A stretch of 64,000 bases of DNA from positions 2,432,001 to 2,496,000 of the forward strand of contig CAXXGO010000006.1 of assembly GCA_963666835.2 (NCBI GenBank), in the 5' to 3' direction. Positions 38,544 through 54,554 of the stretch are shown in pieces. The notes beneath the pieces were generated by a model. It was not told the origin of the DNA, made no database searches, and saw only the letters and a list, made by a program, of their open reading frames with translations. The first letter of the stretch is position 1. Each line of letters begins with the position of its first letter. This stretch comes from Phycisphaerae bacterium. Its GTDB lineage: Bacteria; Planctomycetota; Phycisphaerae; UBA1845. Made by a program: the position numbers and the translations under genes.

Positions 38544-38576
38544 ACGCGGGTTTCCTCGGAGGCGCCCCCGGCGGGT

Positions 38577-39031
38577 GTAGGGCAGGTCGAGGAACGAGAC
38601 CTGCCGTGGTCTTCGCGCGATGTGCACCATCGTGGCAGGTCTCGTACCTCGACCGTGCCCTACAGGGGGTGACAATCGGGTGGCATGGGTCAACTTGTTG
38701 ACCCGTGCAGCTTGGCGAGCCGCAGGCATCACGGGCAAGCTGGAACGGTCCATGACCCTAACGCGAGATCGAGTGACGACCGGTACTTCGCTGCGCAAAT
38801 CGGCGACGCTTGCCCATGGCACCCAGGACGGCAGGTCTCGTACCTCGACCGTGCCCTACGAGGTCTTCGCGCGATGTGCACCATCGTGGCAGGTCTCGTA
38901 CCTCGACCGTGCCCTACGAGGTCTTCGCGCGATGTGCACCATCGTGGCAGGTCTCGTACCTCGACCGTGCCCTACGGAATCTCCGCGCGATACGCCGTCG
39001 TGGCAGGTCTCGTACCTCGACCGTGCCCTAC
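38577..39031. repeat. GTAG-type REP cluster: one REP on + and five identical inverted 30-nt copies
   Basis: GTAGGGCAGGTCGAGGAACGAGACCTGCC at 38577-38605; GGCAGGTCTCGTACCTCGACCGTGCCCTAC at 38634, 38830, 38888, 38946, 39002. Confidence 0.88.
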
Positions 39032-39211
39032 GCAGGATGACAACTTGATGGCATGGGGAAACTCGTTGTCCTGTGGAGCAAATGCGGTCCGCACAGCGTA
39101 CCCTACTTGCCTTGGGACGCCAGGTTCTGTAAGGCCAAGGCGTGCGGCTGGAGGATTGTCGGTTGTGGCAGGTCGCTTACGCTCGCCGTACTTGTGGAAG
39201 CGGTCTGTTGC

Positions 39212-39775
39212 TCAGGCCGGGCCGGAGTCGTTCAACTCGTGGCGAAGCCACAGGCGCGCTTGGGCCCAATAGCGGTCGGCGGTTGCCCGGGAGATGCCCA
39301 GCACTTCGCCGGCCTTTTCCACGGTGAGGCCTTCGAAGAAGCGGAGTCGCACGAGTTCGGCTTTGGTCGGGTCAGTCGCCGAGAGCCGCGCCAGCGCTTC
39401 GTTGAGGGCCTCGACGTTGTCCGGTTCACGCCGGCACGGCAGGTCTCCGTCGTCCAGCGACAATCGTCGACGGTTGCCCCCACGTTTCAAACGCGAGCGA
39501 CGCCTCGCTTGGTCGATGAGGATCCGACGCATAGCCTCTCCGGCGGCGGTGAAGAAATGCGCACGGTTGTCGAAGGTGAAGTTCTCGGCGCCGCCGAGTC
39601 GAATGAAGGCCTCGTGAACCAAGCCGGTGGCGTCCAGAGGTTGGTCGGGCGGCTCCTGGGCGATTCTCTGCTCAGCGAGCCTTCGAAGTTCTTCGTACAC
39701 CGCTGTTACCAGACGGTCCGCGGCTTCTTGGTCTCCGGCTTTGATAGCAGTCAGGATGCGCGTTACTTCTCCCAT
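39212..39775 (-). CDS. ECF sigma factor, TIGR02999-like, without an adjacent kinase
   Basis: VTRIL..GD..AADRL..VYEELRRLA, LDATGLVHEAFIRL, HFFTAAGEAMRRILID, VRLRFF, ARLWL. Confidence 0.95.
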   Translation of the reverse strand: MGEVTRILTAIKAGDQEAADRLVTAVYEELRRLAEQRIAQEPPDQPLDATGLVHEAFIRLGGAENFTFDNRAHFFTAAGEAMRRILIDQARRRSRLKRGGNRRRLSLDDGDLPCRREPDNVEALNEALARLSATDPTKAELVRLRFFEGLTVEKAGEVLGISRATADRYWAQARLWLRHELNDSGPA

Positions 39776-39956: not shown

Positions 39957-41201
39957 TTATCGGTCTGATGTGTCAGCGCCGGTCACCGACGGCGCGACAG
40001 GTCGCGCGAACGCGGCTTGTTGAGACCAGATGCCCGGGATCTCGGCTCCGCAGTTCGGGCACTTGCCGTCCGCGATTACGTTGGCGCGCACGTTAAACCC
40101 GATTCGGCTGATCAGCTCGTGACGGCACTGATGGCAGTAGGTGTTCTCACCGGGGTGCATGCGCACGTTGCCCACGTATGCATAATGCACGCCTTCCTCG
40201 AGCGCGATCTCCCGAGCCCGCTCGATTGTCGACACGGGAGTCCGCGGCAAGTTCATCATGCGGTACGTGGGGTGGAAGCGTGTGAAATGCATGGGGACGT
40301 TGGGCCCGAGCTGCCGGACGACCCACCGGCACATCTGTTTGATCTCGTCCGCCGAATCGTTGAGCGTGGGGATGATCAGAATCACGAGTTCGAACCAGAT
40401 TCCGATGCCCTTGAGCGTCTCGAGCGTAGCCAAGACCGGCTTCAACTCGCCGGCGCACGTATCACGATAGAACTTCTCGGTAAACGCTTTGAGATCTATC
40501 TTCACCCCCGTCAATTGCCGGCATAGCTGGCGAAGCGGTTTCTCTTGAATGTAGCCGTTGGAGATCATCACACTGCCGATCCCGGCGCCACGGGCCAACG
40601 CGGCCGTGTCGTGCATGTACTCGTAGAACACGACCGGCTCGGAGTAGGTGTAGGCGATGGTCTGGGCCCGCCGGGCTTTGCACACCTCGATCAGACGTTC
40701 CGGAGTTACAATGGTGCTATTCTCGAGCTGCTCCGGTCGGAACTGGCTGATCTGCCAGTTCTGGCAGAACTTGCACTCGATATTGCAGCCGGCCGTGGCG
40801 ATGGAGAATGCCGCGGTGCCCGGCAGGTAATGGAATAGCGGCTTCTTCTCGATCGGGTCGAGGTTGGCCGAGCACAATGCGCCATAGACGAGTGTTTGGT
40901 ACTTTCCGTCGCGGTTCTCGCGGACTCCGCAATATCCTCGCTCGACGTCCGCGACTTCGCATTCCCTCGGACAAAGCGTGCAGCGCAGACGCTGGTCGGA
41001 CGTCGGCTCCCAGTGCATCGCATCGTGGCGATTGATGCCGTTCAGATGCGGGCCCGGGAGTGTTCCGGTGCCGGCGACGTCTTGTCCGGCCGCCGGCGCC
41101 AGGCGGAGCGAGCCGAGCGCGCCGGCGGCTCCGCACACCATACCCCAACGCAGAATGTCGCGGCGGGTGGGTTCGTTGAAGAAATTGTGTCGGCAGTCCA
41201 C
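39957..41201 (-). CDS. amrS: AmmeMemoRadiSam-system radical SAM enzyme with Tat-like leader
   Basis: CNIECKFC (CxxxCxxC), CTLCPREC, DPIEKKPLFH, YTYSEP, HFTRFHP, CHQC..CPNC; N-terminal TRRDIL plus hydrophobic stretch. Confidence 0.92.
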   Translation of the reverse strand: MDCRHNFFNEPTRRDILRWGMVCGAAGALGSLRLAPAAGQDVAGTGTLPGPHLNGINRHDAMHWEPTSDQRLRCTLCPRECEVADVERGYCGVRENRDGKYQTLVYGALCSANLDPIEKKPLFHYLPGTAAFSIATAGCNIECKFCQNWQISQFRPEQLENSTIVTPERLIEVCKARRAQTIAYTYSEPVVFYEYMHDTAALARGAGIGSVMISNGYIQEKPLRQLCRQLTGVKIDLKAFTEKFYRDTCAGELKPVLATLETLKGIGIWFELVILIIPTLNDSADEIKQMCRWVVRQLGPNVPMHFTRFHPTYRMMNLPRTPVSTIERAREIALEEGVHYAYVGNVRMHPGENTYCHQCRHELISRIGFNVRANVIADGKCPNCGAEIPGIWSQQAAFARPVAPSVTGADTSDR

Positions 41202-41202
41202 G

Positions 41203-42246
41203 TCACACCTCGATTACTTCGATCCGGTCCATTCTGGCGATTCCCAGTCCGCGAGCCCCGGCCGTGGCGATGTGCCGGGGTGGGCGGCCTTCCTCTGCCA
41301 GGCTTCGAAGTCCCGCTTCGGCCCGCTTGGACTCGAGAAGCGCGGCCGCCACTGCGTCAGTTGCGACGAAGTCCGATCCGACGATCAAACCGCAGAAGTG
41401 CCACGCAAAGCCAGGATGTCGGCCGGGTCCGGCATGGTACTGTGCGCGAGTGCCGTCGCACACGGTCAGGCGCCACTTGGGCGCGATGAACCGGTGAGAG
41501 ACAACATCTGCGACGAAGGGGTCGCAGTTGCTCGCGTGGTATTTGTTGGGGTTGTGGATAGCCCCGAAGAAATTCTTCATTCCAAGAGATACGCCGGCTA
41601 AGTTGTGGTCTTTAAGAACCGGCACACAGATGAGCGTGTCCACCTGCTCGGCAACGATACGCGAGAAGCACGAGCCGATCTGTCCGGAGCTTTCGATTTC
41701 CCGCTGGTATCCACTTCCGATGGCGTCTGCGTCGGTGCCGAAGCACCGTGATCCACCGGTCGACTTGTTCAGCCGGAAGCCGGCGTTGAGGAGTTCCACA
41801 TCGAAGCGATCCCAGATGATGATGTTCTCGGCGCGTACGTCCGCGCTTCGTAAGCCGGCGACAATTGCATCCACCACCGCGGGCTGAGTCGAGAGGCCCA
41901 GCGTGTTTACCTTGATTCCGATGCGATTGGTCGGCTGGAAGAACTTTCGCCATGCGGTGCGGGGGTCGGAAGTTGCGGCGAGACGCTGCATGCCTGCGTC
42001 AAGGAGGCCGCGAAGCACTCCGCGGTGCTCCGATACCACGCCCTTGGTTAGTGCGTCATCTCGGGCAACCACGACTCGTGCAGAGGGTTCTGCTCCATGG
42101 CTCTGACCGAAGGCTACGGCTGGGTATGCGGCAAGTGCGGCTCCCGTTCGGGAGATGAACTCACGGCGAGTCAACTTCCTGAGCCCGGACGATTCCCCGT
42201 CCGGGCGAGCGTACGTTGCGCAGGTGGAGCCCATTGCCACGATCAA
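41203..42246 (-). CDS. DUF362-domain protein with Tat-like leader (start 42246 or 42234)
   Basis: TRREFI + AALAAYPAVAFG; IGIKVN, VPVLKDH..AGVSLGMKNFFG, DFVATD. Confidence 0.88.
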   Translation of the reverse strand: MIVAMGSTCATYARPDGESSGLRKLTRREFISRTGAALAAYPAVAFGQSHGAEPSARVVVARDDALTKGVVSEHRGVLRGLLDAGMQRLAATSDPRTAWRKFFQPTNRIGIKVNTLGLSTQPAVVDAIVAGLRSADVRAENIIIWDRFDVELLNAGFRLNKSTGGSRCFGTDADAIGSGYQREIESSGQIGSCFSRIVAEQVDTLICVPVLKDHNLAGVSLGMKNFFGAIHNPNKYHASNCDPFVADVVSHRFIAPKWRLTVCDGTRAQYHAGPGRHPGFAWHFCGLIVGSDFVATDAVAAALLESKRAEAGLRSLAEEGRPPRHIATAGARGLGIARMDRIEVIEV

Positions 42247-43745
42247 TGCTCACCGAACACTTCCGCCTCGAAACACTCGATTCGTGCGCGAGCGTCCTTC
42301 CATGCGTCCGGCGGCAGCCCCGCCTTACGGCAGGTGTGTTCCAGGAACTCCTCGCGCGACCAACCTCGTTCGTACGCAACCTGTGGAAGCAGAACGCCAC
42401 GGTTATATCCCAGAGTGATTAACAGGCCGTGACGCCCGACAATGATGTCGTTGGGATCGTCCACCGGCTTCATCGGAGTCAGGTAGCTGATTTCGATATC
42501 CAACTCGTCCAGCTCTGTCGCTGTTACCGGGTCTGTAATGAACCGGCGGTCTTGGCAGGCGGATACGGCGTTATGTACGACCGCGTCGACGAGGGGGCCG
42601 GTTGCCTCCATGTTTCCGATGCAGCCCCGCAGCCGACCGTGATTCTGCAGCGTCACAAAGCAAGCACCGTCGCGCTGAACCACGGCCGGGAGGTCCTCGG
42701 GGATAACATCGGGCGTTGTCTTGTTGGTCAGGTAGGAAGTGACCGTCTGCCGGGCAAGCCGAAGGAGGGCCTTGCGTTCATTGTTTCCCAACGTTCCGGG
42801 TCTTCTGGTGAACACGATAGAATAGTAACTTACGCTGTTACTCCAGTCTCCGGTCATCTGGCCGGACGTGTCGAACGCTGCCTTAACGCCTTCGGCACCG
42901 CCACCCAACGAGAGAATCCGCAAGAGCAACAGAATCGCGTTGCGTCCGCAGACGGTGTCGCCCGTCTCGTCCAAATGAGCGGTGAAGCCGTCGAAATCGG
43001 CAAGAAGGAGCGGCTTTGCCGCCTTGTCGGCCAGCTCTCGCAGTTTGGCGGGGATGTTCTCATGGAACGGCTGATAGCCGAACCGCGGGCCGAAATGAGT
43101 GAAATCGCTGCTGGCAACCAGAAGGGTATCGTCGTTCACGAGGGGGGCGATTGCCTTGGCCGCGGCGGTGTAACTCTCGGGCGTCATCCTCCCAACCAAT
43201 AGCGGGACAAGTTGAAACTCGCCCAACGTCCGCTGCAAAAAGGGCAGTTGCAATTCGAGGGAGTGCTCTCCGCGTTCCGCTTCCGGCTTGGAAAGGAACT
43301 CGCGATTCGCCAGGAGCAGGTCGCAAGCCTTCCGGTCGATCGGGACAATCCCGAGAGGTGTCTCGTAACCGGTCAGTGCCTGCGGCACTTCCACTCCATC
43401 GTATCGACTGGCGTATTGATGGCTTAAGGCCAGCACTATTACCCGGCGATACTCGTGCCCGCGAAGGTATCGGTAGCCATGTGCCGCTACCGGGGCACTA
43501 AACCGATATCCGGCATGGGGTGAGATAACGGCCACCGGTTTTGCCGCAGTGGATGGGCCTGATGAGTCGTGCAGAAGCTCGTCCACTTGTTTGGCCAGGT
43601 TCTCGCGATCGCCGGGGTACCAGCTCCCCGCGCATTGGGCGGGTCTGGTGGTGGCGTTTTCTCCTGCGATACCGATTTGTTCCGAAGCAGCCATGGCGGT
43701 TGTTATTCCGATAACGGCTGGCCAGAAATATCTGCCCGATCTCAT
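42243..43745 (-). CDS. MEMO1-like (AmrB) and AMMECR1-like (AmrA) fusion protein
   Basis: AGSWYP, PHAGY, EHSLE, SSDFTH, VCG in the N-part; ACFVTL..LRGCIG, GVLLPQVA..W, KAGL in the C-part. Confidence 0.92.
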   Translation of the reverse strand: MRSGRYFWPAVIGITTAMAASEQIGIAGENATTRPAQCAGSWYPGDRENLAKQVDELLHDSSGPSTAAKPVAVISPHAGYRFSAPVAAHGYRYLRGHEYRRVIVLALSHQYASRYDGVEVPQALTGYETPLGIVPIDRKACDLLLANREFLSKPEAERGEHSLELQLPFLQRTLGEFQLVPLLVGRMTPESYTAAAKAIAPLVNDDTLLVASSDFTHFGPRFGYQPFHENIPAKLRELADKAAKPLLLADFDGFTAHLDETGDTVCGRNAILLLLRILSLGGGAEGVKAAFDTSGQMTGDWSNSVSYYSIVFTRRPGTLGNNERKALLRLARQTVTSYLTNKTTPDVIPEDLPAVVQRDGACFVTLQNHGRLRGCIGNMEATGPLVDAVVHNAVSACQDRRFITDPVTATELDELDIEISYLTPMKPVDDPNDIIVGRHGLLITLGYNRGVLLPQVAYERGWSREEFLEHTCRKAGLPPDAWKDARARIECFEAEVFGEH

Positions 43746-44074: not shown

Positions 44075-44173
44075 CTCAGGCTGCTCGCGCCTCGCCCCCG
44101 GGGCTTGGCTGGTGTCGGCCCGTGTCGACACGACGCGGGGGAGGCTGGTGCCCAACGGCGGACTGAAGTCTGT

Positions 44174-45883
44174 ATGGCTAAGAAGAGGAAGAAAATCGGC
44201 GAGATCCTGGTCGGTTGGAATATCGTTGACGAAGAAGCGGTTACGGAAGCGCTGGCTTACGGCATGGAGCACAACAAGCGCATTGGTGAGGCGCTGGTTG
44301 AGCTGGAGCGGTGCAGCGAAGACGATGTCGCCAAGGCGCTCGGGGTTCAGTTTGGGCTGGAATATGTCGACCTTGAGAAGGAGCGCATTGGCCGCGACAT
44401 TGTAAGCCTCATTCCGTCGAAGATCATCGAAGACTACTCGGTCTTGCCCTTGGCTGAAGAGGGCGGGCAACTGAAGGTAATCATCACTGATCCACTTGAC
44501 CTGGAGACTCTGGATCTGCTGCGTTTCCGCCTGAATCGCGAGATCGTTCCGGTTCTGGCCGCCCCCGCCAAGGTTAAACGTTTCATCGAGAAATTCGTCA
44601 ATCTTGATGGTGATGTGCTGTCGCAAACGATGGCCAGCATCGACCAGGAGGCACCGGAAGAAGACGCGGAGGTGATCGGCGACGTCAAGGACGAGGACTC
44701 GGATGCTCCGATTATTCGGCTGGTTAACCTGCTTATTACCGAGGCTGTTCATGGGCGCGCCAGCGATATTCACATTGAGCCTATGAGTGATCGGGTGCGG
44801 GTCCGCTACCGTATCGACGGGGTCTGCCAGGTCCGCGACGACATTCCCAAGAACATGCAGGCGGCGGTCATTACTCGTTTCAAGATTATGGCGGGGATCG
44901 ATATTGCGGAGCGGCGTATTCCGCAAGACGGTCGAATCAAGATGCGGATCGGAGGCGGTCAGATTGACTTCCGGGTGAGCTCCTGCCCCGCCTACCACGG
45001 CGAGAGTATCGTATTGCGTATTCTCCGTCCGGAATCGGCGGCGACCGGTATTCCGGCATTGGGGTTTGCCGAAGACGACTACAAGCGTTTTACCGAGATC
45101 ATCCGGCGTCCCACCGGGATTTTCCTGGTGACCGGACCGACCGGTTCCGGGAAGACGACGACTCTGTACGCGGCGCTGCAGGAGTTGAACCGCCCGGACG
45201 TTAAGATCATCACCGCCGAGGATCCGGTTGAGTACAACTTCACCGGTATGAACCAGTGCCAGGTCCGCGAGGAGATTAATCTGACCTTTGCGAGGATTCT
45301 CCGGGCGATGTTGCGTCAGGCGCCCAATATCATTCTCGTGGGAGAGATTCGAGACCGTGAGGTGGGCGATGTTGCCATTCAGGCGGCACTCACTGGTCAC
45401 TTGGTGTTCAGCACTCTGCACACTAACGATGCTCCTTCGGCCATCACCCGCTTGATCGACATGGGGGTCAAGCCGTTTCTGATCGCCAGCGCGATTCAGG
45501 CGGTTATGGCTCAGCGTTTGATTCGTGTGATATGTCCCGAATGTAAGGTCGTGGACCCGAACCCGGACCCGCGGACGTTGAAGCTGCTTGACTTCACGGA
45601 AGAGGAGCTGGCCGGACAGACCATCTACAAGGGGGCCGGCTGTAAGCGCTGTCGCGGCACGGGTTATCGCGGACGTCTGGGCATCTTTGAGATGTTCACG
45701 ATGAACAACGAGCTTCGCGATTTGGCGTTCCGCAAGGCCACGGCGAGCGAGTTGCGGGTAGCGGCCAGGGCTTCGGGGATGCGCACGCTCCTGGCGGACG
45801 GAAAGCTCAAGATCCTCAAAGGGATTACCACCCCGGATGACCTTCTCCGGGTGACGCAGGCGGAAGGGCTAGCACTGGATTAG
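44174..45883 (+). CDS. pilB: PilB/GspE assembly ATPase 1
   Basis: MshEN-like N-terminus, ASDIHIEP, GPTGSGKTT, EDPVE, LRQAPN, CPEC..CKRC. Confidence 0.93.
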   Translation: MAKKRKKIGEILVGWNIVDEEAVTEALAYGMEHNKRIGEALVELERCSEDDVAKALGVQFGLEYVDLEKERIGRDIVSLIPSKIIEDYSVLPLAEEGGQLKVIITDPLDLETLDLLRFRLNREIVPVLAAPAKVKRFIEKFVNLDGDVLSQTMASIDQEAPEEDAEVIGDVKDEDSDAPIIRLVNLLITEAVHGRASDIHIEPMSDRVRVRYRIDGVCQVRDDIPKNMQAAVITRFKIMAGIDIAERRIPQDGRIKMRIGGGQIDFRVSSCPAYHGESIVLRILRPESAATGIPALGFAEDDYKRFTEIIRRPTGIFLVTGPTGSGKTTTLYAALQELNRPDVKIITAEDPVEYNFTGMNQCQVREEINLTFARILRAMLRQAPNIILVGEIRDREVGDVAIQAALTGHLVFSTLHTNDAPSAITRLIDMGVKPFLIASAIQAVMAQRLIRVICPECKVVDPNPDPRTLKLLDFTEEELAGQTIYKGAGCKRCRGTGYRGRLGIFEMFTMNNELRDLAFRKATASELRVAARASGMRTLLADGKLKILKGITTPDDLLRVTQAEGLALD

Positions 45884-45986
45884 GCGTATTGTGGTTCGAA
45901 TGCCGACCGGCGGTTGGGTCGACTAGGCGTCGGTGGCATGGTTTTTGGGGCACTCCGAACGGTAGGGGGGGCCGGGAAACGATTTA

Positions 45987-47114
45987 ATGGCGACACTACA
46001 CATTGACCGTTTGTTGGAGACGGTGGTCAAGCAGGGGGCGTCGGATTTGCACCTGACCGTGGGACGCCCGCCGGTTCTCCGGCTGTCTCACCATCTTCGC
46101 TCGCTGGAGACCAAGGTTCTCACTCCGGAAGACACCGTGGCGCTTATGAAGGCGATTACTCCGGAGCGGAACCAGCAGGAACTCCAGGAAGAGGGGGGAA
46201 CCGACTTCGGCTTTGCCTTCGGCGACGCCGGTCGTTTTCGAGTGGCGATCTTCAAGCAGAAGGGCAACATAGCGATCGTGCTTCGTCTTCTTCCTTCGAA
46301 GTTCATGTCGTTTGAGGAAATCGGTTTGCCGCCGGTGTGCCGGGGTCTATGCCGCCGACCTCGCGGTATCTTCCTGGTGACGGGGCCGACCGGGTCGGGG
46401 AAGACCACGACTCTGGCGACGATGATCGATTACATCAACAAGGAGCTCGACCGCCATATCGTGACGATCGAGGATCCGATCGAGTACTATCACTCGCATC
46501 AGAAATCACTGATTAACCAACGATCCGTCGGCGTGGATGTGCCCAGCTTCGAGGAGGCTTTGCGTCGTTCCTTGCGGCAGGATCCGGATGTCATTTTCGT
46601 CGGTGAGCTGCGTGACTTGGAGACGATTGAGTCGGCGATTCGCGCTGCGGAAACCGGCCACTTGGTGTTCAGCACGCTGCACACCACGGGGTGTCAGGGT
46701 ACGATCACCCGAGTTGCAGACGCGTTTCCTCCCAACCAGCAGGAGCAGATTCGGGTCCAGCTTTCGACGAACCTGATCGCAACCATCTCCCAGGTGTTGT
46801 TGCCCAGAATCCCCAAGGGCATGGTGGCGGCGTACGAGTTCATGGTAACGACCCCGGCTATTGCCAACCTGATCCGCGAGAACAAGGTTTATCGAATCGA
46901 CTCGGCGATTCAGACCGGAAAGAAGTTCGGCATGCAGTTGCTGGACGACCACTTGTGGGAGCTTTTCGAAAAAGGTCTGATCTCGGACGAAGACGCGGTC
47001 GACTGCTCGAAGAACGCCGGCCGAATGCAGGATCGGATCGATTCCCATCGCCGCGGCAAAGATACCGGCAAGATTGGCGATGACGAGGAACGGTCAGTTT
47101 TGAGGACATCATGA
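45987..47114 (+). CDS. pilT: Type IV pilus retraction ATPase
   Basis: ASDLHL, GPTGSGKTT, LRQDPD, AAETGH, AIANLIRE (AIRNLIRE motif), GMQ. Confidence 0.95.
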   Translation: MATLHIDRLLETVVKQGASDLHLTVGRPPVLRLSHHLRSLETKVLTPEDTVALMKAITPERNQQELQEEGGTDFGFAFGDAGRFRVAIFKQKGNIAIVLRLLPSKFMSFEEIGLPPVCRGLCRRPRGIFLVTGPTGSGKTTTLATMIDYINKELDRHIVTIEDPIEYYHSHQKSLINQRSVGVDVPSFEEALRRSLRQDPDVIFVGELRDLETIESAIRAAETGHLVFSTLHTTGCQGTITRVADAFPPNQQEQIRVQLSTNLIATISQVLLPRIPKGMVAAYEFMVTTPAIANLIRENKVYRIDSAIQTGKKFGMQLLDDHLWELFEKGLISDEDAVDCSKNAGRMQDRIDSHRRGKDTGKIGDDEERSVLRTS

Positions 47115-48895
47115 GCGAACCGAAAGCCAGTACGCCGAAAGCGGGCGGGACCCGCAAGGCACCGTCGATTGAGCAGCTTCGCGGACGCCAGATCGGACGC
47201 ATTCTGATCAAGATGGGCAAGCTCAAGCGAACCCAGGTTCACGAGGCGCTCGAGATCCAGAAAGAGCAACGGGGTCCGCTCGGCGCGATTCTCGTCGAGT
47301 TGGGATATATCACCGAGGAGGATCTGACCCACGCCCTCGCGGCCCAAAGCGGGATGGAGTTCGTGGACGTTGCGAAGATGGACATCCCGGAAGACGTCAT
47401 TGCGCTGATGAACGTGCAGATGGCGATGACCTATCGGGTAGTCCCGTTCAACCGCGATCCGGAGACGAATGAGGTCTCGATCGTGATGGACAGCGCGGAC
47501 AACTTCCTGGCCGCAGACGATTTGCAGACTTTGCTGGGTTGTCGGATCAAGTGTTTTCTCAGCAGTCCCGCCGATCTGCAGAAAGCGCTTGACCGGTACT
47601 ATCCGGAAGGAGATCAGGAGTCGATTACCGGGCTGATCGGCGAATTGACCGAAGACAGCGATCTCGCCAAGTTCGAGGGCCGCGGCGACAGTATCGACTT
47701 AGCCGAGCTTAAGGAGATGGCCGATCTTAACCCGGTCAAGAAGCTGCTTAACCTTGTGCTCCTGCAGGCGATCAAGGACAAGGCCAGCGATATCCACTTT
47801 GAGCCGTTCGAAGACGAGTTCAAGATGCGCTATCGTATCGACGGCGTATTGTACGAGATGGTGCCCCCTCCACGGTACATTGCTCTGGCGATTTCGTCCC
47901 GCGTTAAGGTCATGGCGAACCTGGATATCGCGGAGCGGCGTTTGCCTCAGGACGGTCGTATTGAGCTGCAGCTCAAGGGGGCGCCGATCGACTTGCGTGT
48001 GGCGGTATTGCCGACCATGTTCGGGGAGAGCGTCGTATTGCGAGTGCTCGACCGTTCCAACGTGCAGTTGCGGCTCGATCGCCTGGGTCTGCGGGACGAC
48101 GAGCTGAACGCGTTCCGGCAGCTAATGCGTAAACCGAACGGGATTATCGTTAACACCGGGCCCACCGGGTCGGGGAAGACGACTACTCTTTACGCGGCTT
48201 TGCAGGAGCTTAACGATCCCGAAGTGAAGATCCTGACCGCCGAAGACCCGGTGGAGTACGATATTGACGGCTTGGTTCAGGTACAGATTCGGACGGAAGT
48301 CGGTTTGACCTTCGCTCGGGCGTTGCGCAGTTTCTTGCGTCAGGACCCGGATATTATTCTGGTCGGAGAGATCCGAGACCTGGAGACCGCGCAGATCAGC
48401 GTGCAGGCATCGTTGACCGGACACCTGGTATTCACGACGCTCCACACGAACGACGCGCCTTCGTCTGTGGCTCGTTTGGTGGATTTGGGGCTTGAGACCT
48501 TCCTTCTTACAGCGACAGTGGAGGCTATCATCGCTCAGCGGCTGGTCCGAAGGGTGTGTACGAACTGCAAGAAGGAGTACAAGCCGACGGAAGACCAATT
48601 GATGCAGCTCAACCTCCGCCCGGAGGACGTCGGTGATCGGTACTTCTGCTACGGCGAGGGGTGCGAGTACTGCAACAACACAGGCTATCGCGGCCGAACG
48701 GGGTTGTACGAGTGCATGGTCATGACCGACCCTCTACGCGAGCTCATCATGAAGGACGCGTCTACTGCGGTTCTTCGTCGAGAGGCGGTCAAGAATGGCA
48801 TGCGGCAACTTCGCGATGCGGGTCTGTTGGCCATTTTTGACGGGATCACCTCGCTGGACGAAGTGGTCAAGGAAACGGTTATGGAAGAGGCGTAG
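47111..48895 (+). CDS. pilB: PilB/GspE assembly ATPase 2
   Basis: MshEN-like N-terminus, ASDIHFEP, GPTGSGKTT, LRQDPD, CTNC..CEYC. Confidence 0.93.
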   Translation: MSEPKASTPKAGGTRKAPSIEQLRGRQIGRILIKMGKLKRTQVHEALEIQKEQRGPLGAILVELGYITEEDLTHALAAQSGMEFVDVAKMDIPEDVIALMNVQMAMTYRVVPFNRDPETNEVSIVMDSADNFLAADDLQTLLGCRIKCFLSSPADLQKALDRYYPEGDQESITGLIGELTEDSDLAKFEGRGDSIDLAELKEMADLNPVKKLLNLVLLQAIKDKASDIHFEPFEDEFKMRYRIDGVLYEMVPPPRYIALAISSRVKVMANLDIAERRLPQDGRIELQLKGAPIDLRVAVLPTMFGESVVLRVLDRSNVQLRLDRLGLRDDELNAFRQLMRKPNGIIVNTGPTGSGKTTTLYAALQELNDPEVKILTAEDPVEYDIDGLVQVQIRTEVGLTFARALRSFLRQDPDIILVGEIRDLETAQISVQASLTGHLVFTTLHTNDAPSSVARLVDLGLETFLLTATVEAIIAQRLVRRVCTNCKKEYKPTEDQLMQLNLRPEDVGDRYFCYGEGCEYCNNTGYRGRTGLYECMVMTDPLRELIMKDASTAVLRREAVKNGMRQLRDAGLLAIFDGITSLDEVVKETVMEEA

Positions 48896-48986
48896 AGGGC
48901 TGGACTTTTCGGTCGCGTTGCCGACCGAACCAGCCGAGTTCTCGTGCTGCCGCAGCGGATGGCAGAAGTCTTGAAGGGGTTTTTAC

Positions 48987-50234
48987 GTGGCAACATTCGC
49001 ATACGAGGCGATGAACCAGGCCGGCCAGGAGGTCAAGGACGAGATCGAAGCGATCTCGACCGAAGACGCTCTGGCGAAGATTCGCGGTCTGGGGTATTTC
49101 CCCACGCGTATTCGGGAGAAGGGTGCCGCCAAGGCCAAGGCGGCAACCGGCAAGAAGAAGTCCGGCGGGTTCTCGATCGGCCGGGTCTCTGCAAAGGCCT
49201 GCACCCAGTTCACCCGTCAGCTTTCCACCTTGCAGGATGCCGGGTTGCCGATTCTGCGGAGCTTGACCATCCTCGAGGAGCAGCAGAAGCCGGGAATCCT
49301 CAAGAACACCCTGCGGTCGGTGGCGGAGGACATCGAAGGTGGTTCGACGTTGTCGGAGGCTTTTGCCAAGCACCCGAAGGCTTTTGACCGCCTGTATGTG
49401 AACATGGTGGCGGCCGGCGAGAGCGGTGGTGTTTTGGACACCATCCTTTTGCGGCTGGCGGACTTCATGGAGAAGGGGCAGAAGCTGAAGCGGAAGATCG
49501 TCGGGGCGATGATCTATCCCGCGGCCATTATGACCTTCGCGGTCGGTATCGTGTCCGGTATCATGATATTCGTCATCCCGAAGTTCAAGGAGATCTTCCT
49601 GGACTTCGATACGGCTCTTCCGGCTATTACGATGGTGTTGCTGAATTTCGCGGACTGGTTCACGGGCGGGATGCCGCCGGGCTGGGCGGTGTTGATCTTC
49701 GGCCCTTTGGGGATCTGGTTCCTTTTCAAGTTGATACGCTCGTCGAAAGGGGGACGCTACGCGGTGGATTATGTCTCCGTCAAAATCCCCGGATTGGGCA
49801 CCCTTGTGCAGAAGACGACTATCGCCAGGTTCACTCGTACCCTTGGGACGCTGGTGGCTGCGGGTGTGCCTATTCTCGAGGCGATCAACATCACGAAGGA
49901 AACGTCCGGCAACGAAGTGTATGCCCGGGCTCTGGAGGCGGTGCACAACTCCATCCGGGAGGGTGAGAGTTTTGCGGCACCCTTGCGAGCTGCCGGCGTA
50001 TGCGATGCCCTGGTGGTCAATATGATCGACGTCGGGGAAGAGACCGGAGAGCTGGACAAAATGCTCCTTAAGATCGCGGACAACTACGAGGAGGAGGTCG
50101 ACGTCGCCGTTGGCGGCTTGGTATCTCTGCTCGAACCGTTGATGGTCATCGGGCTTGGAAGTGTGGTCGGCTTCATTGTCATGGCGTTATTCATGCCGCT
50201 GGTGTCGCTGATGCAGGGTGTGGGAGGCGGATAG
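48987..50234 (+). CDS. pilC: PilC/GspF inner-membrane platform protein
   Basis: FTRQLSTL.DAGLP, AGESGG.LD, GEETGELD..LLEP, three TM helices. Confidence 0.95.
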   Translation: MATFAYEAMNQAGQEVKDEIEAISTEDALAKIRGLGYFPTRIREKGAAKAKAATGKKKSGGFSIGRVSAKACTQFTRQLSTLQDAGLPILRSLTILEEQQKPGILKNTLRSVAEDIEGGSTLSEAFAKHPKAFDRLYVNMVAAGESGGVLDTILLRLADFMEKGQKLKRKIVGAMIYPAAIMTFAVGIVSGIMIFVIPKFKEIFLDFDTALPAITMVLLNFADWFTGGMPPGWAVLIFGPLGIWFLFKLIRSSKGGRYAVDYVSVKIPGLGTLVQKTTIARFTRTLGTLVAAGVPILEAINITKETSGNEVYARALEAVHNSIREGESFAAPLRAAGVCDALVVNMIDVGEETGELDKMLLKIADNYEEEVDVAVGGLVSLLEPLMVIGLGSVVGFIVMALFMPLVSLMQGVGGG

Positions 50235-50429
50235 GCCGCGAGATCGGGATTGATGAGACTTGCGTAAGGCGGTTCCGGATTGCCGGCCGGGATCGGGGGG
50301 GATTCTCAGGTTGCCGGCGCCGGTCGTGAGTTGCGGTGCCTATAATCAACGGGATGTAACCCGGAAAACTGCATTGGGCGAATCAGGCGGAGTTCACCAT
50401 CGGGCGTCCGGCGAGGAGTAAACGGTGTT

Positions 50430-51530
50430 ATGAGAGTCTCCAACGTTCTTTGTGGCGGGCGTGTTACGAATCACCGCGGTTCGACGGCGTTCACGCTGAT
50501 CGAGCTGCTTACGGTCGTCTTCATTATTACCTTGCTGATCGGGATTCTGGTGCCGGCGTTGAACGGGGCGCGCAACATGGCGAAGAAGACCTCAACGAAG
50601 GCGACCATCAGCGCGATCGGCACTTCTCTCGATCTGTTCCGCGGTGACAACGAGCGTGAGTTTGCGGCGACTAATGGCTATCCGCCCTCGTTTTCCCACC
50701 CACGCATGTTGGATTCGTCCGGTAGCGACCTGTTCGACAGGTTCAAGGGGGAATGCCCGTTCATCAAGGATAAGCCGGTCATTTCCGGAGCGCACTGGCT
50801 GCCCATGATGCTGATGGGGTTGGACCAGGAGGGATACGTGAAGCGCAGTACGGTTCCCCGGAAGGACGACATGCGGGACAAGCCGTGGCTCTGGTACGAC
50901 CCGGATGCGCTCGGGACGGGTAAAAGGCTGGATCGCCAGCCGTTCTATGCCGATCCGGGGAACCTCAAGACGAAACAGACGAAGGACATTGGCGGTCATC
51001 GTAACGACGCCTTGTTCGAGGAGAATGTGTGGACTGCTGTTAAGAACCTCCCGGTGATTATTGACGCGTTCGGTACTCCGATTCTGTACTTCGCCGCTAA
51101 CGCCAACGGCACGACCAACAATATGTTGGAGGACGAGCGGGACGAGAATAACGAGTATACCGGAGGCGTGCAGCAGGAAGGCCCGCCGGTGTACTTCCAC
51201 CAAGACAACCACATGTTCACCGGCACCAAGAATGAGAAGGGCTGGGATTTTGACGGCCCGCATGTCATTGCCGCATGCGGATCGGAACGTAATGCTGATG
51301 AGCTCAGTGACCCGGACAATCTGGAGGCGGCCAACACGTTCGCCCGTTACATCCTCGACCGCACGTTGTTGCGTACCTTACGGACCAAACGTGAGGCTGG
51401 TGAGACGATTTCGGAATCGACCCCGTTGCGTCCGGTGAATGCGGATTCGTATTTGTTGATGAGCCCCGGGGTCGATGGAGTCTGGGGCACGCGGGATGAC
51501 GTTACTAATTTCACGCTGGAACTCGAGTAG
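50430..51530 (+). CDS. Large type IV pilin/GspG-like pseudopilin 1
   Basis: AFTLIELL; DAFGTPI; DSYLLMSPGVDGVWGTRDDVTNF; AGGAG RBS, TATAAT at 50341. Confidence 0.9.
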   Translation: MRVSNVLCGGRVTNHRGSTAFTLIELLTVVFIITLLIGILVPALNGARNMAKKTSTKATISAIGTSLDLFRGDNEREFAATNGYPPSFSHPRMLDSSGSDLFDRFKGECPFIKDKPVISGAHWLPMMLMGLDQEGYVKRSTVPRKDDMRDKPWLWYDPDALGTGKRLDRQPFYADPGNLKTKQTKDIGGHRNDALFEENVWTAVKNLPVIIDAFGTPILYFAANANGTTNNMLEDERDENNEYTGGVQQEGPPVYFHQDNHMFTGTKNEKGWDFDGPHVIAACGSERNADELSDPDNLEAANTFARYILDRTLLRTLRTKREAGETISESTPLRPVNADSYLLMSPGVDGVWGTRDDVTNFTLELE

Positions 51531-51558
51531 CACGAGCCGCCTTCAGGGCAAGACAAGG

Positions 51559-52593
51559 ATGCGGATTATGAGCATGCGTAAACCGGGCAACTGCGGCCTT
51601 GGCTTCACCTTGGTCGAGCTGTTGGTGGTGATAACGATCATCGGGCTTCTGATCGCGGTGTTGTTGCCGTCAATGTCGCGCATTCGCGTAAAGGCGAAGA
51701 ACACCCAGACGACGGCGCAGCTCAATGCGATTGAGCAAGGTCTGGAGATGTACCGCGGCGAGAACGCGTTGGGAGGTAGTTATCCGCCTTCATGTGGTGA
51801 CGTCGGGGAGAATCTGGCGGATCGGCGGAAGATCGCGAATCCGCTCGAAGAGAACGCGGAGCCGGATACGGCGATTACCGGGGCGCACCTGCTCGTGAAC
51901 GCTCTTATCGGGGCGGACATGCTGGGGACGCCCGGGCTGCGGGATATGGACCGGGACGGATTCTGGGCCGACGATACGCACTCGGGTGACGGCGGGGCGT
52001 ACGAGGTTACCGACGACGAAGGTGTCGAGGTCCAACCGCGGTACGGTGGAACCGGGTACGTCGATGACAAGATGAAGGAAGAGAGCGTGACGACCTTGGG
52101 GAAACTCGAGGACGAGGGGAAGATCTTCGTTTGGACCGACGCGGTTTCCTCTACGCCCACGCGCCATCAGTTGGTTTTCGTCGATCCGTGGAGCCGGCCG
52201 ATTCTCTACTACAAGGCCAATCCGGTAGGGCGCCGTATGGTCGGCAGTTCAACCGATCCCGGGATCTACTGGCAGGACGACAACGGCCTGATTACCGGGT
52301 CGGTTAACGGCCTGACCGATTACGACGGCATCGATTTCGGTGCGGGTAAGGTGGATGGCTACTACCATCGAATCGCCGATGCTAAGTGCCCGCCTCCCAA
52401 GCCGGTTATCGATGTAGACATGGAGGCGGATTACGAGCACTCGTTGGCTCTGTTCATTTTCGATCCTGCGGTCAAGGCCCGCAACACTCCGGTTCGCAAG
52501 GACAGCTATCTGCTGATAACTGCAGGGGCGGATTCGATCTACGGAACCGACGACGACGTGTTGAACTGGACGAAGAAGGAACGGGAGCAGTAG
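51559..52593 (+). CDS. Large type IV pilin/GspG-like pseudopilin 2
   Basis: GFTLVELL; DPWSRPI; DSYLLITAGADSIYGTDDDVLNW. Confidence 0.9.
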   Translation: MRIMSMRKPGNCGLGFTLVELLVVITIIGLLIAVLLPSMSRIRVKAKNTQTTAQLNAIEQGLEMYRGENALGGSYPPSCGDVGENLADRRKIANPLEENAEPDTAITGAHLLVNALIGADMLGTPGLRDMDRDGFWADDTHSGDGGAYEVTDDEGVEVQPRYGGTGYVDDKMKEESVTTLGKLEDEGKIFVWTDAVSSTPTRHQLVFVDPWSRPILYYKANPVGRRMVGSSTDPGIYWQDDNGLITGSVNGLTDYDGIDFGAGKVDGYYHRIADAKCPPPKPVIDVDMEADYEHSLALFIFDPAVKARNTPVRKDSYLLITAGADSIYGTDDDVLNWTKKEREQ

Positions 52594-53595
52594 ATGCCGC
52601 GGGGACTCTCTTACAGAGAAAGGCCATCAACGCGGTCGCTTCGCGCGTTTACGCTCATCGAGCTGCTGGTGGTCTTTGTGATTATCGCCGTGTTGGTAAG
52701 CTCGGTACTTGTTGGCGGTACCGTGCTGATTAACAAGGCCAGAACCCGCGATACCCAGGTTGTCCTGCAGCTTGTGCGGGACGCCGTCGATGAGTTTCAG
52801 CGGGATAAGCCCGCGATCATAGAGGTCAGCCAGAAACGCTCGACCGGCAGAATCCGTTACATGAACCGGTACGGACAGTACCCGGCCGATGAACTGGAGA
52901 TGTTCAGCAAGCAGGGTCTACCCGGCAGTATCGCACCACCGAGTAACCGGTCGTTGGCCGTGGGTAAGGCCGAGATAGTCCCGGCGCCGGGGGCGTCGAA
53001 GTATCCGTCGATGGTCTTCTACAAGGTCGGCAACCCGGCTCCGGAGTACGAACACCGTGATGTAGCGGCGTTGGTGTTGTCGATCGAGACTTACAGCGCC
53101 CCGGCGGCGCTGATTCTGAGCAAGATTCCCGAAGATAACCGGCAGATTGCGTGCGTGGACGCAGCCGGCAATCCGAAACAGTTTCTGGATCGCGACTCTT
53201 CCAAGAACGGTACGTGGGATGACGACACCGATACGCCGGTCCGTTTGATCGTGGATAGTTGGGGCGTGCCGTTGGGGTACTTTGCTCAGCGCGACTACGA
53301 TCCCGACGGCGGAGCGTCGGCGGCGGCTTTGACGGAATCGCGAAACTGTGCGGATTGGAATCAGGCCTCGACCGAGTTCATTCGGATTAACGGCGGTAAG
53401 CCGGTCATTTTCTCGTACGGGCCTAACGGACGCGACCAGCTTAGCAAAGACGTGCAAACTGCTGACAATACTGCGTCACTCGTGGGTGACTGGATGGACT
53501 CGACCGATTCGTCGCCGCGGATCAACAACCCGTATAACACCGACAACATTTACGCCGATCCCGGTTTGGCGGAGAAACTTTCCGCAGGATCGTGA
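52594..53595 (+). CDS. Large type IV pilin/GspG-like pseudopilin 3
   Basis: AFTLIELL; DSWGVPL; IFSYGPNG; DNIY. Confidence 0.88.
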   Translation: MPRGLSYRERPSTRSLRAFTLIELLVVFVIIAVLVSSVLVGGTVLINKARTRDTQVVLQLVRDAVDEFQRDKPAIIEVSQKRSTGRIRYMNRYGQYPADELEMFSKQGLPGSIAPPSNRSLAVGKAEIVPAPGASKYPSMVFYKVGNPAPEYEHRDVAALVLSIETYSAPAALILSKIPEDNRQIACVDAAGNPKQFLDRDSSKNGTWDDDTDTPVRLIVDSWGVPLGYFAQRDYDPDGGASAAALTESRNCADWNQASTEFIRINGGKPVIFSYGPNGRDQLSKDVQTADNTASLVGDWMDSTDSSPRINNPYNTDNIYADPGLAEKLSAGS

Positions 53596-54554
53596 ACATG
53601 ACCGAACGCACTGCGACAGATCGGGCCTGGTTCACTGACGCCTCCCGGCGCCGCGGAGGGTTCACCCTTATCGAGATGATCGTGGTCCTCGCGATCGTGT
53701 TGGTTTTGTTGGGGCTGATCCTTCCGGCGGCCAGCGAGATGTGGGAAGAGCGCAAACTCGCCGACGTGGAGACCATCACTCAGGGGATGCTGATGACCAC
53801 CCGGGCGAACGCGCTGCGCGCCAGCGGGGTGGATACCGGGCTGCTGTTCGTCGTCGATGCTCGCGGCACCCAGCGGATCTTCCCGATCGAGCAGGATTCG
53901 GACCACCCCGGCAACGTGGCCTGGGATAACGTGTTCAAGGTTACTCAGGGGCGGGCGTACTCGTTGCCGGCTCCCATTCGGGTGGTCCCGCGCTATGTTG
54001 TGGACGAAGAGGTGGAGAATTCGGACGGACCGCGCGTCTTCACCGAAGCGGAACTGGCCAACGATAACTTCGTTATCCCGCCGCCAGATTCCGATATCGG
54101 ACAGCGTCACCGCAACTTCTTCACCATGGTCTTTTCGAGCGAGGGGCAGTTGCAGGTGCGCCGAGACGTTCTGATTCAGGATGTCGACGTTGCGGGCGAC
54201 GGCATCGGTGACACGACGGGAATGCCGGTCGGGAAAGGGCCGGATCCCGATGACGCCAATGTCGGCCAGTACTACACGCAGGATTCGAGCAGCAGCCCCA
54301 AAGCCATTGATCCGCGGGCCTCGCATCTGGCCGAGGACATCCCGTACCTGGTCAATGATCAGAGCAGCGGGTCGACCGCCGAGATAGCGATCAACTTCCC
54401 GTCGGTTGACGGGCTGTTAGTCTACGACGATTCATTATTCAGAGGGCTGGACGACATCACGCAGAAACGGTCCTTTCTGCTGGAGACGGGACGGCCATTC
54501 TACGTGAATCGCAATACCGGGGCGGTCATTCAAGGCCCGGTCGGAGAGAATTGA
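53592..54554 (+). CDS. Minor pilin (FimT/GspH-like position)
   Basis: RRGGFTLIEMIVVLAI; start overlaps the previous stop. Confidence 0.85.
   Translation: MNMTERTATDRAWFTDASRRRGGFTLIEMIVVLAIVLVLLGLILPAASEMWEERKLADVETITQGMLMTTRANALRASGVDTGLLFVVDARGTQRIFPIEQDSDHPGNVAWDNVFKVTQGRAYSLPAPIRVVPRYVVDEEVENSDGPRVFTEAELANDNFVIPPPDSDIGQRHRNFFTMVFSSEGQLQVRRDVLIQDVDVAGDGIGDTTGMPVGKGPDPDDANVGQYYTQDSSSSPKAIDPRASHLAEDIPYLVNDQSSGSTAEIAINFPSVDGLLVYDDSLFRGLDDITQKRSFLLETGRPFYVNRNTGAVIQGPVGEN

Follow-up and report, generated by a model that had tools for sequence, protein, structure and literature searches.

The 64,000-nucleotide stretch of a Phycisphaerae bacterium analysed here (the window; assembly GCA_963666835.2, contig CAXXGO010000006.1, positions 2,432,001 to 2,496,000) contains at 39957-43745 an operon for an exported variant of the known AmmeMemoRadiSam system, a variant that is real and conserved and has apparently not been described before. 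In this system a radical S-adenosylmethionine (SAM) enzyme, AmrS, is associated with the Memo (AmrB) and AMMECR1 (AmrA) proteins. Export of the three encoded proteins appears highly probable from their sequences, and we lean, less firmly, to the view that the operon encodes the core of an AmmeMemoRadiSam version working outside the cytoplasm with the help of a SAM carrier and an electron wire. Radical chemistry is probably what the exported system carries out there.

Three minus-strand open reading frames (ORFs) follow one another in the order amrB-A, DUF362 and amrS. The first (42243-43745, 500 amino acids, aa) is a Memo-AMMECR1 fusion with profile matches to the Memo domain at 42810-43646 and to the AMMECR1 domain, with its conserved Arg373-Gly-Cys-Ile-Gly377 motif, at 42255-42770; it scores 193 bits against TIGR04336 (cut-off 26) and 172.1 against TIGR04335 (cut-off 99). 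The DUF362 protein (41203-42246, 347 aa), which has the nickel-pincer-binding fold of LarA, scores 70.2 bits against PF04015 (cut-off 24). AmrS (39957-41201, 414 aa), assigned by profile match and trees to the export clade described below, reaches 390.5 bits against TIGR04337 (cut-off 220) and 61.6 against PF04055 (radical SAM; cut-off 29.5), and the alignment places its CxxxCxxC cluster motif (Cys139, 143, 146) at 40764-40787. AmrS, AmrB and AmrA are thus all present above the cut-offs of the system, the latter two in one fused ORF two genes upstream of amrS. The closest relatives of the locus are labelled Phycisphaerae or Planctomycetota.

The initial annotation, made from the letters alone, had described three tightly coupled genes of these families, with which the ORFs and family profiles agree, and the N-terminal sequences that it quoted are present as quoted. 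The 1-nt gap that it gave before amrS is real, but its 4-nt overlap hinges on the uncertain TTG start that the ORF finder chose for DUF362 at 42246; an ATG at 42234 (8 nt past the amrB-A stop) and a TTG at 42174, directly before the twin-arginine (RR) motif, are as likely to be the real start.

Export leaders and the AmrS clade that carries them

The twin-arginine translocation (Tat) pathway exports folded, cofactor-loaded proteins. A Tat-type leader opens AmrS (41085-41201; RR at 41165-41160), with a 14-residue uncharged stretch and a basic residue just before the predicted cleavage after Gly39; that of DUF362 (42106-42174; RR at 42168-42163) has a predicted cleavage after Gly47. Both were recognised from the sequence and its homologs. 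AmrB-A begins with a probable Sec-type signal peptide lacking RR (43689-43745; predicted cleavage after Ala19), delimited from the sequence and its relatives.

Leader counts were taken from the best 80 AmrS-homolog loci with a strict twin-arginine rule (modelled on TatFind, not the TatFind program itself) and a looser RR rule. These rules are passed by 79/81 AmrS N-termini (56 strict, 23 loose), the remaining two being cut by contig ends, and by 54/57 DUF362 N-termini (43 strict, 11 loose), where the misses are two contig-end cuts and one KR; the same rules pass 76/2000 random 80-aa windows and 5/47 AmrB-A N-termini. The RR and small-residue cleavage motifs are kept across the export clade, and AmrS and DUF362 show the RR consensus, uncharged stretch, cleavage motif and conservation of Tat substrates; TatC is encoded in the genome. 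A hydrophobic leader stretch without RR is present in 50/53 distinct AmrB-A fusions from export loci, some of them lipoprotein-like, and in 0/7 Memo proteins from other loci. The export leaders claimed earlier for AmrS and DUF362 are therefore conserved, and the leader called Sec-like on the fusion is of the Sec or lipoprotein type. True starts downstream of the RR motifs had been named as a result that would overturn the claim. For AmrS the start lies upstream, as judged by the Met found in many close homologs at the position of its GTG. For DUF362 the matter is mixed: all three candidate starts precede the RR motif, but the database gene call (P0004, 271 aa) begins downstream of it. Most of the other 119 listed homologs, unlike P0004, are about 330 aa long.

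AmrS proteins with leaders also group together. From 150 representatives at 50% identity, 14 were dropped as fragments or split hits; the 136 usable ones, this AmrS and its paralog gave a FastTree tree of 138 catalytic cores, leaders excluded, in which a clade of 48 (support 0.89) holds 28/29 Tat-labelled and 13/13 Sec- or transmembrane (TM)-labelled proteins. A second tree combines this core with 118 distinct ones from 151 evenly sampled phylum genomes and has a clade of 39 (support 0.906) with all 31 leader-labelled proteins, and outside it 0/80 proteins carry a leader. Visual inspection and clade hidden Markov models (HMMs) served to class the hits of ten loci that the Cys pattern missed, as well as 16 weak or partial hits. 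Separate leaderless AmrS, AmrA and AmrB are also encoded in this genome.

The fusions of clade members are varied, which gives independent signs of an outside location. TM and FMN_bind modules precede AmrS, with no helix between FMN_bind and AmrS, in P0142 and P0155; a signal peptide and a CBM11-like domain or a propeller precede it in P0139 and P0135; NapH-like and DsbD_2 membrane modules are fused ahead of it in P0128, P0130, P0132, P0137 and P0149; and the triple fusions P0150 and P0168 bear a leader. Meheust et al. (PMC8238504) place the FMN-binding domains of NapH-like proteins outside the cytosol. Two further architectures were seen. In P0261 a leaderless AmrS is fused to flavodoxin, FAD- and NAD-binding domains, that is, to a built-in cytoplasmic reductase, and in loci L047-L074 (Scalindua/Brocadiales) anammox bacteria encode a Tat-leader AmrS adjoining the membrane protein considered below.

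Several observations weigh against export of AmrS and DUF362 as a rule of the clade. The Pfam TAT_signal profile scores 20.1 on AmrS, just below its cut-off of 22.7, and has no match on DUF362 (extended start used); the P0004 gene call has been mentioned. The clade is not recovered cleanly in a merged tree under the rooting used, the tree supports are Shimodaira-Hasegawa-like values near 0.9, and the Tat-labelled P0249 falls outside it. Four clade members lack a leader (L139, L140, L148, P0163). The membrane protein beside the AmrS of L139 has at its end an RR motif, then a helix, then a segment similar to the first AmrS strand, from which we read that this leaderless AmrS may be the product of a recent split. 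A Sec-type leader on an iron-sulfur (Fe-S) protein, finally, implies cluster assembly after export, for which we know of no general pathway.

These points could be taken to mean that the leaders stay uncleaved as anchors or are mere vestiges, with the enzymes active in the cytoplasm or on the cytoplasmic face of the membrane, which we consider improbable. SAM and reductant are plentiful in the cytoplasm; the low Pfam score and the leaderless clade members fit such a location, and no known extracytoplasmic radical SAM enzyme turned up in the literature (titles and abstract starts). The AmrS leaders (41085-41201 here; L001-L080) may moreover have another role, since they contain at least two Cys in 67/79 close relatives versus 0/54 DUF362 leaders. 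This excess, however, fades among distant representatives (8/29), the RR and cleavage motifs persist throughout the clade, AmrS is fused directly to FMN-binding domains, and all partners bear export signals of differing types. We keep to export as the preferred reading.

Partners that may supply SAM and electrons

The initial annotation noted that an exported pathway would need SAM and reductant outside the cytoplasm, and candidate partners matching this need were found: a membrane protein related to spermidine synthase (SpeE) and a NapH-NapG polyferredoxin. Among the 80 closest loci, many of them short, DUF362 is present in 57, AmrB-A in 48, the membrane SpeE-like protein in 42, DUF6599 in 9 and a NapH-like protein in 5; all seven genes of the system are neighbours in several relatives. 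The tallies for the 151 phylum genomes were made by hand, on kin that are not independent and genomes that are mostly incomplete. Export-clade AmrS occurs in 38 of them, and the membrane protein in 26 of these 38 (32 with HMM-found neighbours) versus 4 of the other 113; a close DUF362 homolog is found in 16/38 versus 5/113. Within 6 kb of AmrS, export loci exceed other loci in the membrane protein (19/53 versus 1/63) and in DUF362 (3/53 versus 0/63). The initial annotation had suggested testing the co-occurrence of Tat-AmrS, DUF362 and fused AmrB-A; DUF362 is enriched with exported AmrS. Counted over the same 6 kb, Memo is found at 9/53 export loci versus 3/63 others, and AmrB-A at only some 9-10 of the 53.

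In an alignment of 51 homologs the membrane protein starts with seven helices, followed by a soluble domain of 326 aa and a second set of helices, five of them scored and two inferred. Its basic residues alternate in a positive-inside pattern, which places the soluble domain, by prediction, outside. This domain matches solved spermidine synthases (E 8e-14) and keeps the Gly-rich loop and acidic adenosyl-binding positions; both aspartate positions that aminopropyltransferases need are replaced in the 17 rows shown. A spermidine synthase proper was rejected, with 164.3 against a cut-off of 472 (PRK03612) and the catalytic aspartates lost; the broad family NF037959 (fused MFS/spermidine synthase) is passed with 58.4 against 40. 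Whether the protein is a SAM carrier or presenter seems to us evenly balanced on these motifs. In two loci (L139:336-4883, minus strand; L148:2068-6003, plus strand) a single polypeptide combines the SpeE-like membrane protein with FMN-binding and NapH-like domains and adjoins a leaderless export-clade AmrS; in L148 an ApbE-like frame, recognised by eye, precedes amrS.

Contig C3 of this genome groups the membrane protein with a second Tat DUF362 and the NapH-NapG fusion; the DUF6599 gene is found at another place on C6. The polyferredoxin (C3:503.7-505.6 kb) has the NapH-like part, internal RR motif (before its last helix) and NapG-like domain of dual-targeted polyferredoxins, and the RR motif occurs in 3/3 distinct full-length close homologs. 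Reporter fusions to the membrane part of this polyferredoxin family are Tat-dependent in E. coli, according to Tooke et al. 2017 (PMC5449189).

Some facts speak against so close a partnership. The membrane partners are encoded here on other contigs or far from the locus, and the topology comes from a simple hydropathy script (12 helices), to which two helices were added by eye. One Tat-AmrS subclade (14 loci) adjoins a different, secreted helical protein. This protein (about 320 aa, no Pfam match; L213:7228-8199, minus strand, and 13 other loci) is a possible alternative substrate. Together with the few nearby AmrB-A genes, it makes AmrB-A weaker as a universal substrate.

It is also conceivable, if improbable, that exported AmrS needs no SAM supply (it might carry one SAM for a single turnover or with regeneration, or be an Fe-S sensor or carrier) and that the membrane SpeE-like protein has another job, such as polyamine or nucleoside transport or sensing. 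Folded proteins with bound ligands do pass through Tat, and in some radical SAM enzymes SAM serves as a catalytic cofactor; the passed NF037959 cut-off likewise fits such a job. The Sec- or TM-anchored AmrS of the clade, however, could not carry SAM out folded, and the membrane subfamily tracks exported AmrS in the phylum and is fused to an electron conduit in L139 and L148.

Returning to the reading with a supply from the membrane, we can lay down the following order of events. AmrS would fold and load its metal sites in the cytoplasm and leave via Tat; DUF362 would also leave via Tat, probably with a nickel-pincer-type cofactor already loaded, and AmrB-A would leave via Sec and fold outside. 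Leaders, motifs and folds make this transport very likely. The 7+7-helix SpeE-like protein could then deliver SAM or remove by-products, a role that co-occurrence and motifs leave about evenly poised. The architectures argue somewhat more for the NapH-NapG polyferredoxin as the probable reductant of the AmrS catalytic cluster from the membrane, a part that FMN-binding, NapH-like or DsbD_2 modules fused to AmrS would take in other lineages. AmrS would generate the 5'-deoxyadenosyl radical and, with AmrB-A, perform the same chemistry as its cytoplasmic paralog. In some lineages the pathway would also include DUF362, as an accessory enzyme for hydride transfer.

The possible substrate and the role of DUF362

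The chemistry of exported AmrS looks unchanged relative to the cytoplasmic form. Cys139, 143 and 146 are invariant in all 138 aligned cores, and about 40 positions are at least 90% conserved in both the export and the other clade, including all Cys motifs (CxxxCxxC, an N-terminal four-Cys motif and C-terminal Cys pairs); the differences between the clades are three only, and weak. Fusions of S, A and B occur in both clades. A sequence search against solved structures gave no match for AmrS, and its nearest other NCBIfam models are glycyl-radical activases (E 3e-13 to 1e-11, far below cut-offs). In AmrB-A the Memo residues His77, His109, Asp214, His217 and Cys266, presumably metal ligands as in MEMO1, are conserved in at least 97% of 53 fusions, and the Gly-Cys motif of AMMECR1 is kept.

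It is tempting to propose a protein-directed reaction, like that of glycyl-radical activases, on Sec-exported AmrB-A with the AMMECR1 Gly-Cys as candidate site; this is a doubtful guess. The weakness of the activase matches (E 1e-11 to 1e-13) counts against it, and no glycyl-radical enzyme is found among recurrent neighbours of AmrS loci. Were AmrB-A the substrate, AmrS would have a reason to leave the cytoplasm after it. A small metabolite of the envelope is a substrate of roughly equal likelihood, and AmrB-A is only slightly ahead as a guess. An exported location would reasonably argue against a nucleic-acid substrate for this subtype, as had been suggested; the conserved AmrS residues being equal in both clades, the argument may extend to the whole Memo-AMMECR1-radical SAM family.

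The earlier proposal of DUF362 as a substrate or redox partner is weakened. The protein has the fold of the LarA cofactor-binding domain, and its profile alignment places His214, Lys224 and invariant His237 at 41536-41607. His214 (aligned to LarA His174) and Lys224 (aligned to the cofactor-tethering Lys) are conserved in 70/70 sequences; His237, a candidate nickel ligand 13 residues past Lys224, is not aligned by hhalign to the nickel-ligating LarA His200. At the second catalytic His of LarA (His108) the DUF362 profile alignment has a gap, the C-terminal substrate-binding domain of LarA is absent from the mature protein of about 300 aa, and a search of NCBIfam models, LarA included, gave 0 matches. 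DUF362 has been used as an outgroup for LarA in published work. Seven DUF362 matches occur in the genome, and three more paralogs (L098:5813-6808, L101:6284-7429, L096:8606-9700) have twin-arginine leaders and the same Lys/His set. There are also two LarA-family genes (L234:1477-3024 and L235:1450-2724), one about 3.5 kb from the DUF6599 gene.

DUF362 might still be a client whose pincer-type cofactor is finished, modified or repaired outside by exported AmrS and AmrB-A. Its place between amrB-A and amrS in 47/80 closest loci, its LarA fold with conserved Lys and His, and its enrichment with exported AmrS agree with this; nevertheless we find it unlikely. The same query finds no DUF362 in 22 of the 38 exported-AmrS genomes, the gene is within 6 kb in only 3/53 export loci of the phylum sample, and it occurs without exported AmrS in two single-contig genomes (G081, G171; 99-100% complete). 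Further, larB, larC and larE are present in this genome, so that ordinary cytoplasmic loading before Tat export suffices; their presence is not specific (larC in 131/151 phylum genomes). The best reading of DUF362 is that of a nickel-pincer-type enzyme with an accessory part, not of an obligatory substrate.

Surroundings, meaning and comparison with known systems

Directly downstream of amrS lies an ECF (extracytoplasmic function) sigma factor gene (39212-39775, minus strand; TIGR02999), which is no recurrent neighbour in relatives. The intergenic region 38576-39059 contains six copies, one inverted, of a 58-nt repeat whose 30-nt core is matched 668 times across the genome, in about 243 clusters, as in a family similar to repetitive extragenic palindromes (REP). 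Divergent from the operon, at 44105-54554 (plus strand), is a cluster resembling type IV pilus and type II secretion genes, recognised by eye, with ATPases, a membrane platform and pilin-like ORFs.

The usual assignment of radical SAM enzymes to the cytoplasm reflects their dependence on SAM, on a low-potential reductant and on oxygen-sensitive clusters. Our search on exported or periplasmic radical SAM enzymes gave nothing relevant by title or abstract start, with most subscription papers outside its reach; the word "radical" is absent from the main text of PMC8238504 as available. "AmmeMemoRadiSam" yielded single mentions in unrelated papers only, and AMMECR1 with radical SAM and Memo only a citation of Burroughs et al. 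2019. If our reading is true, the cytoplasmic rule would be broken by an entire exported clade that has a supply chain of its own, and a first route of SAM export would be in hand. The Memo/AMMECR1 system, as yet unexplained and with human homologs of its A and B parts, becomes more accessible too, since a soluble exported form lends itself to purification and to comparison by periplasmic proteomics and metabolomics. PMC11796402 reports larBCE without larA in about 15% of genomes and expects non-LarA nickel-pincer proteins, for which DUF362 is a concrete candidate. The full picture, namely a widespread lineage with multi-turnover radical SAM catalysis outside, a SAM exporter built on a dead spermidine synthase domain, an electron wire and a Tat-exported nickel-pincer enzyme, in a family acting on a non-nucleic-acid substrate, is a tentative one that we hold with less than full conviction, somewhat short of even.

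The system passes the same models as canonical AmmeMemoRadiSam (TIGR04335, TIGR04336, TIGR04337), shares its AmrS residues and keeps the genes as neighbours; it differs in the export leader on every protein, in the B-A order of the fusion, in the added DUF362, membrane SpeE-like protein and polyferredoxin, and in the leaderless set present in the same genome. Glycyl-radical activases (PflA, YjjW, NrdG) supply the nearest other models to AmrS, which has extra N- and C-terminal Cys motifs and scores far below their cut-offs. The membrane partner resembles SpeE and the fused MFS-spermidine synthases (PRK03612, NF037959) in a SpeE-like domain set between two membrane halves, but its aspartates are replaced, it falls below the SpeE cut-offs and its domain is predicted outside. 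With the LarA superfamily of nickel-pincer nucleotide enzymes (7s91, 9eia, 5huq) DUF362 shares the cofactor-binding fold and the His174 and Lys equivalents; unlike LarA, it lacks the His108 equivalent and the C-terminal domain and has a Tat leader, and its cofactor binding is a prediction. The polyferredoxin on C3 has the NapH-like part, internal RR and Cys-rich NapG-like domain of the dual Sec/Tat-targeted polyferredoxin of Tooke et al. 2017 (PMC5449189); in the accessible part of that paper no redox partner is assigned and radical SAM is not mentioned, and the likeness is one of architecture.

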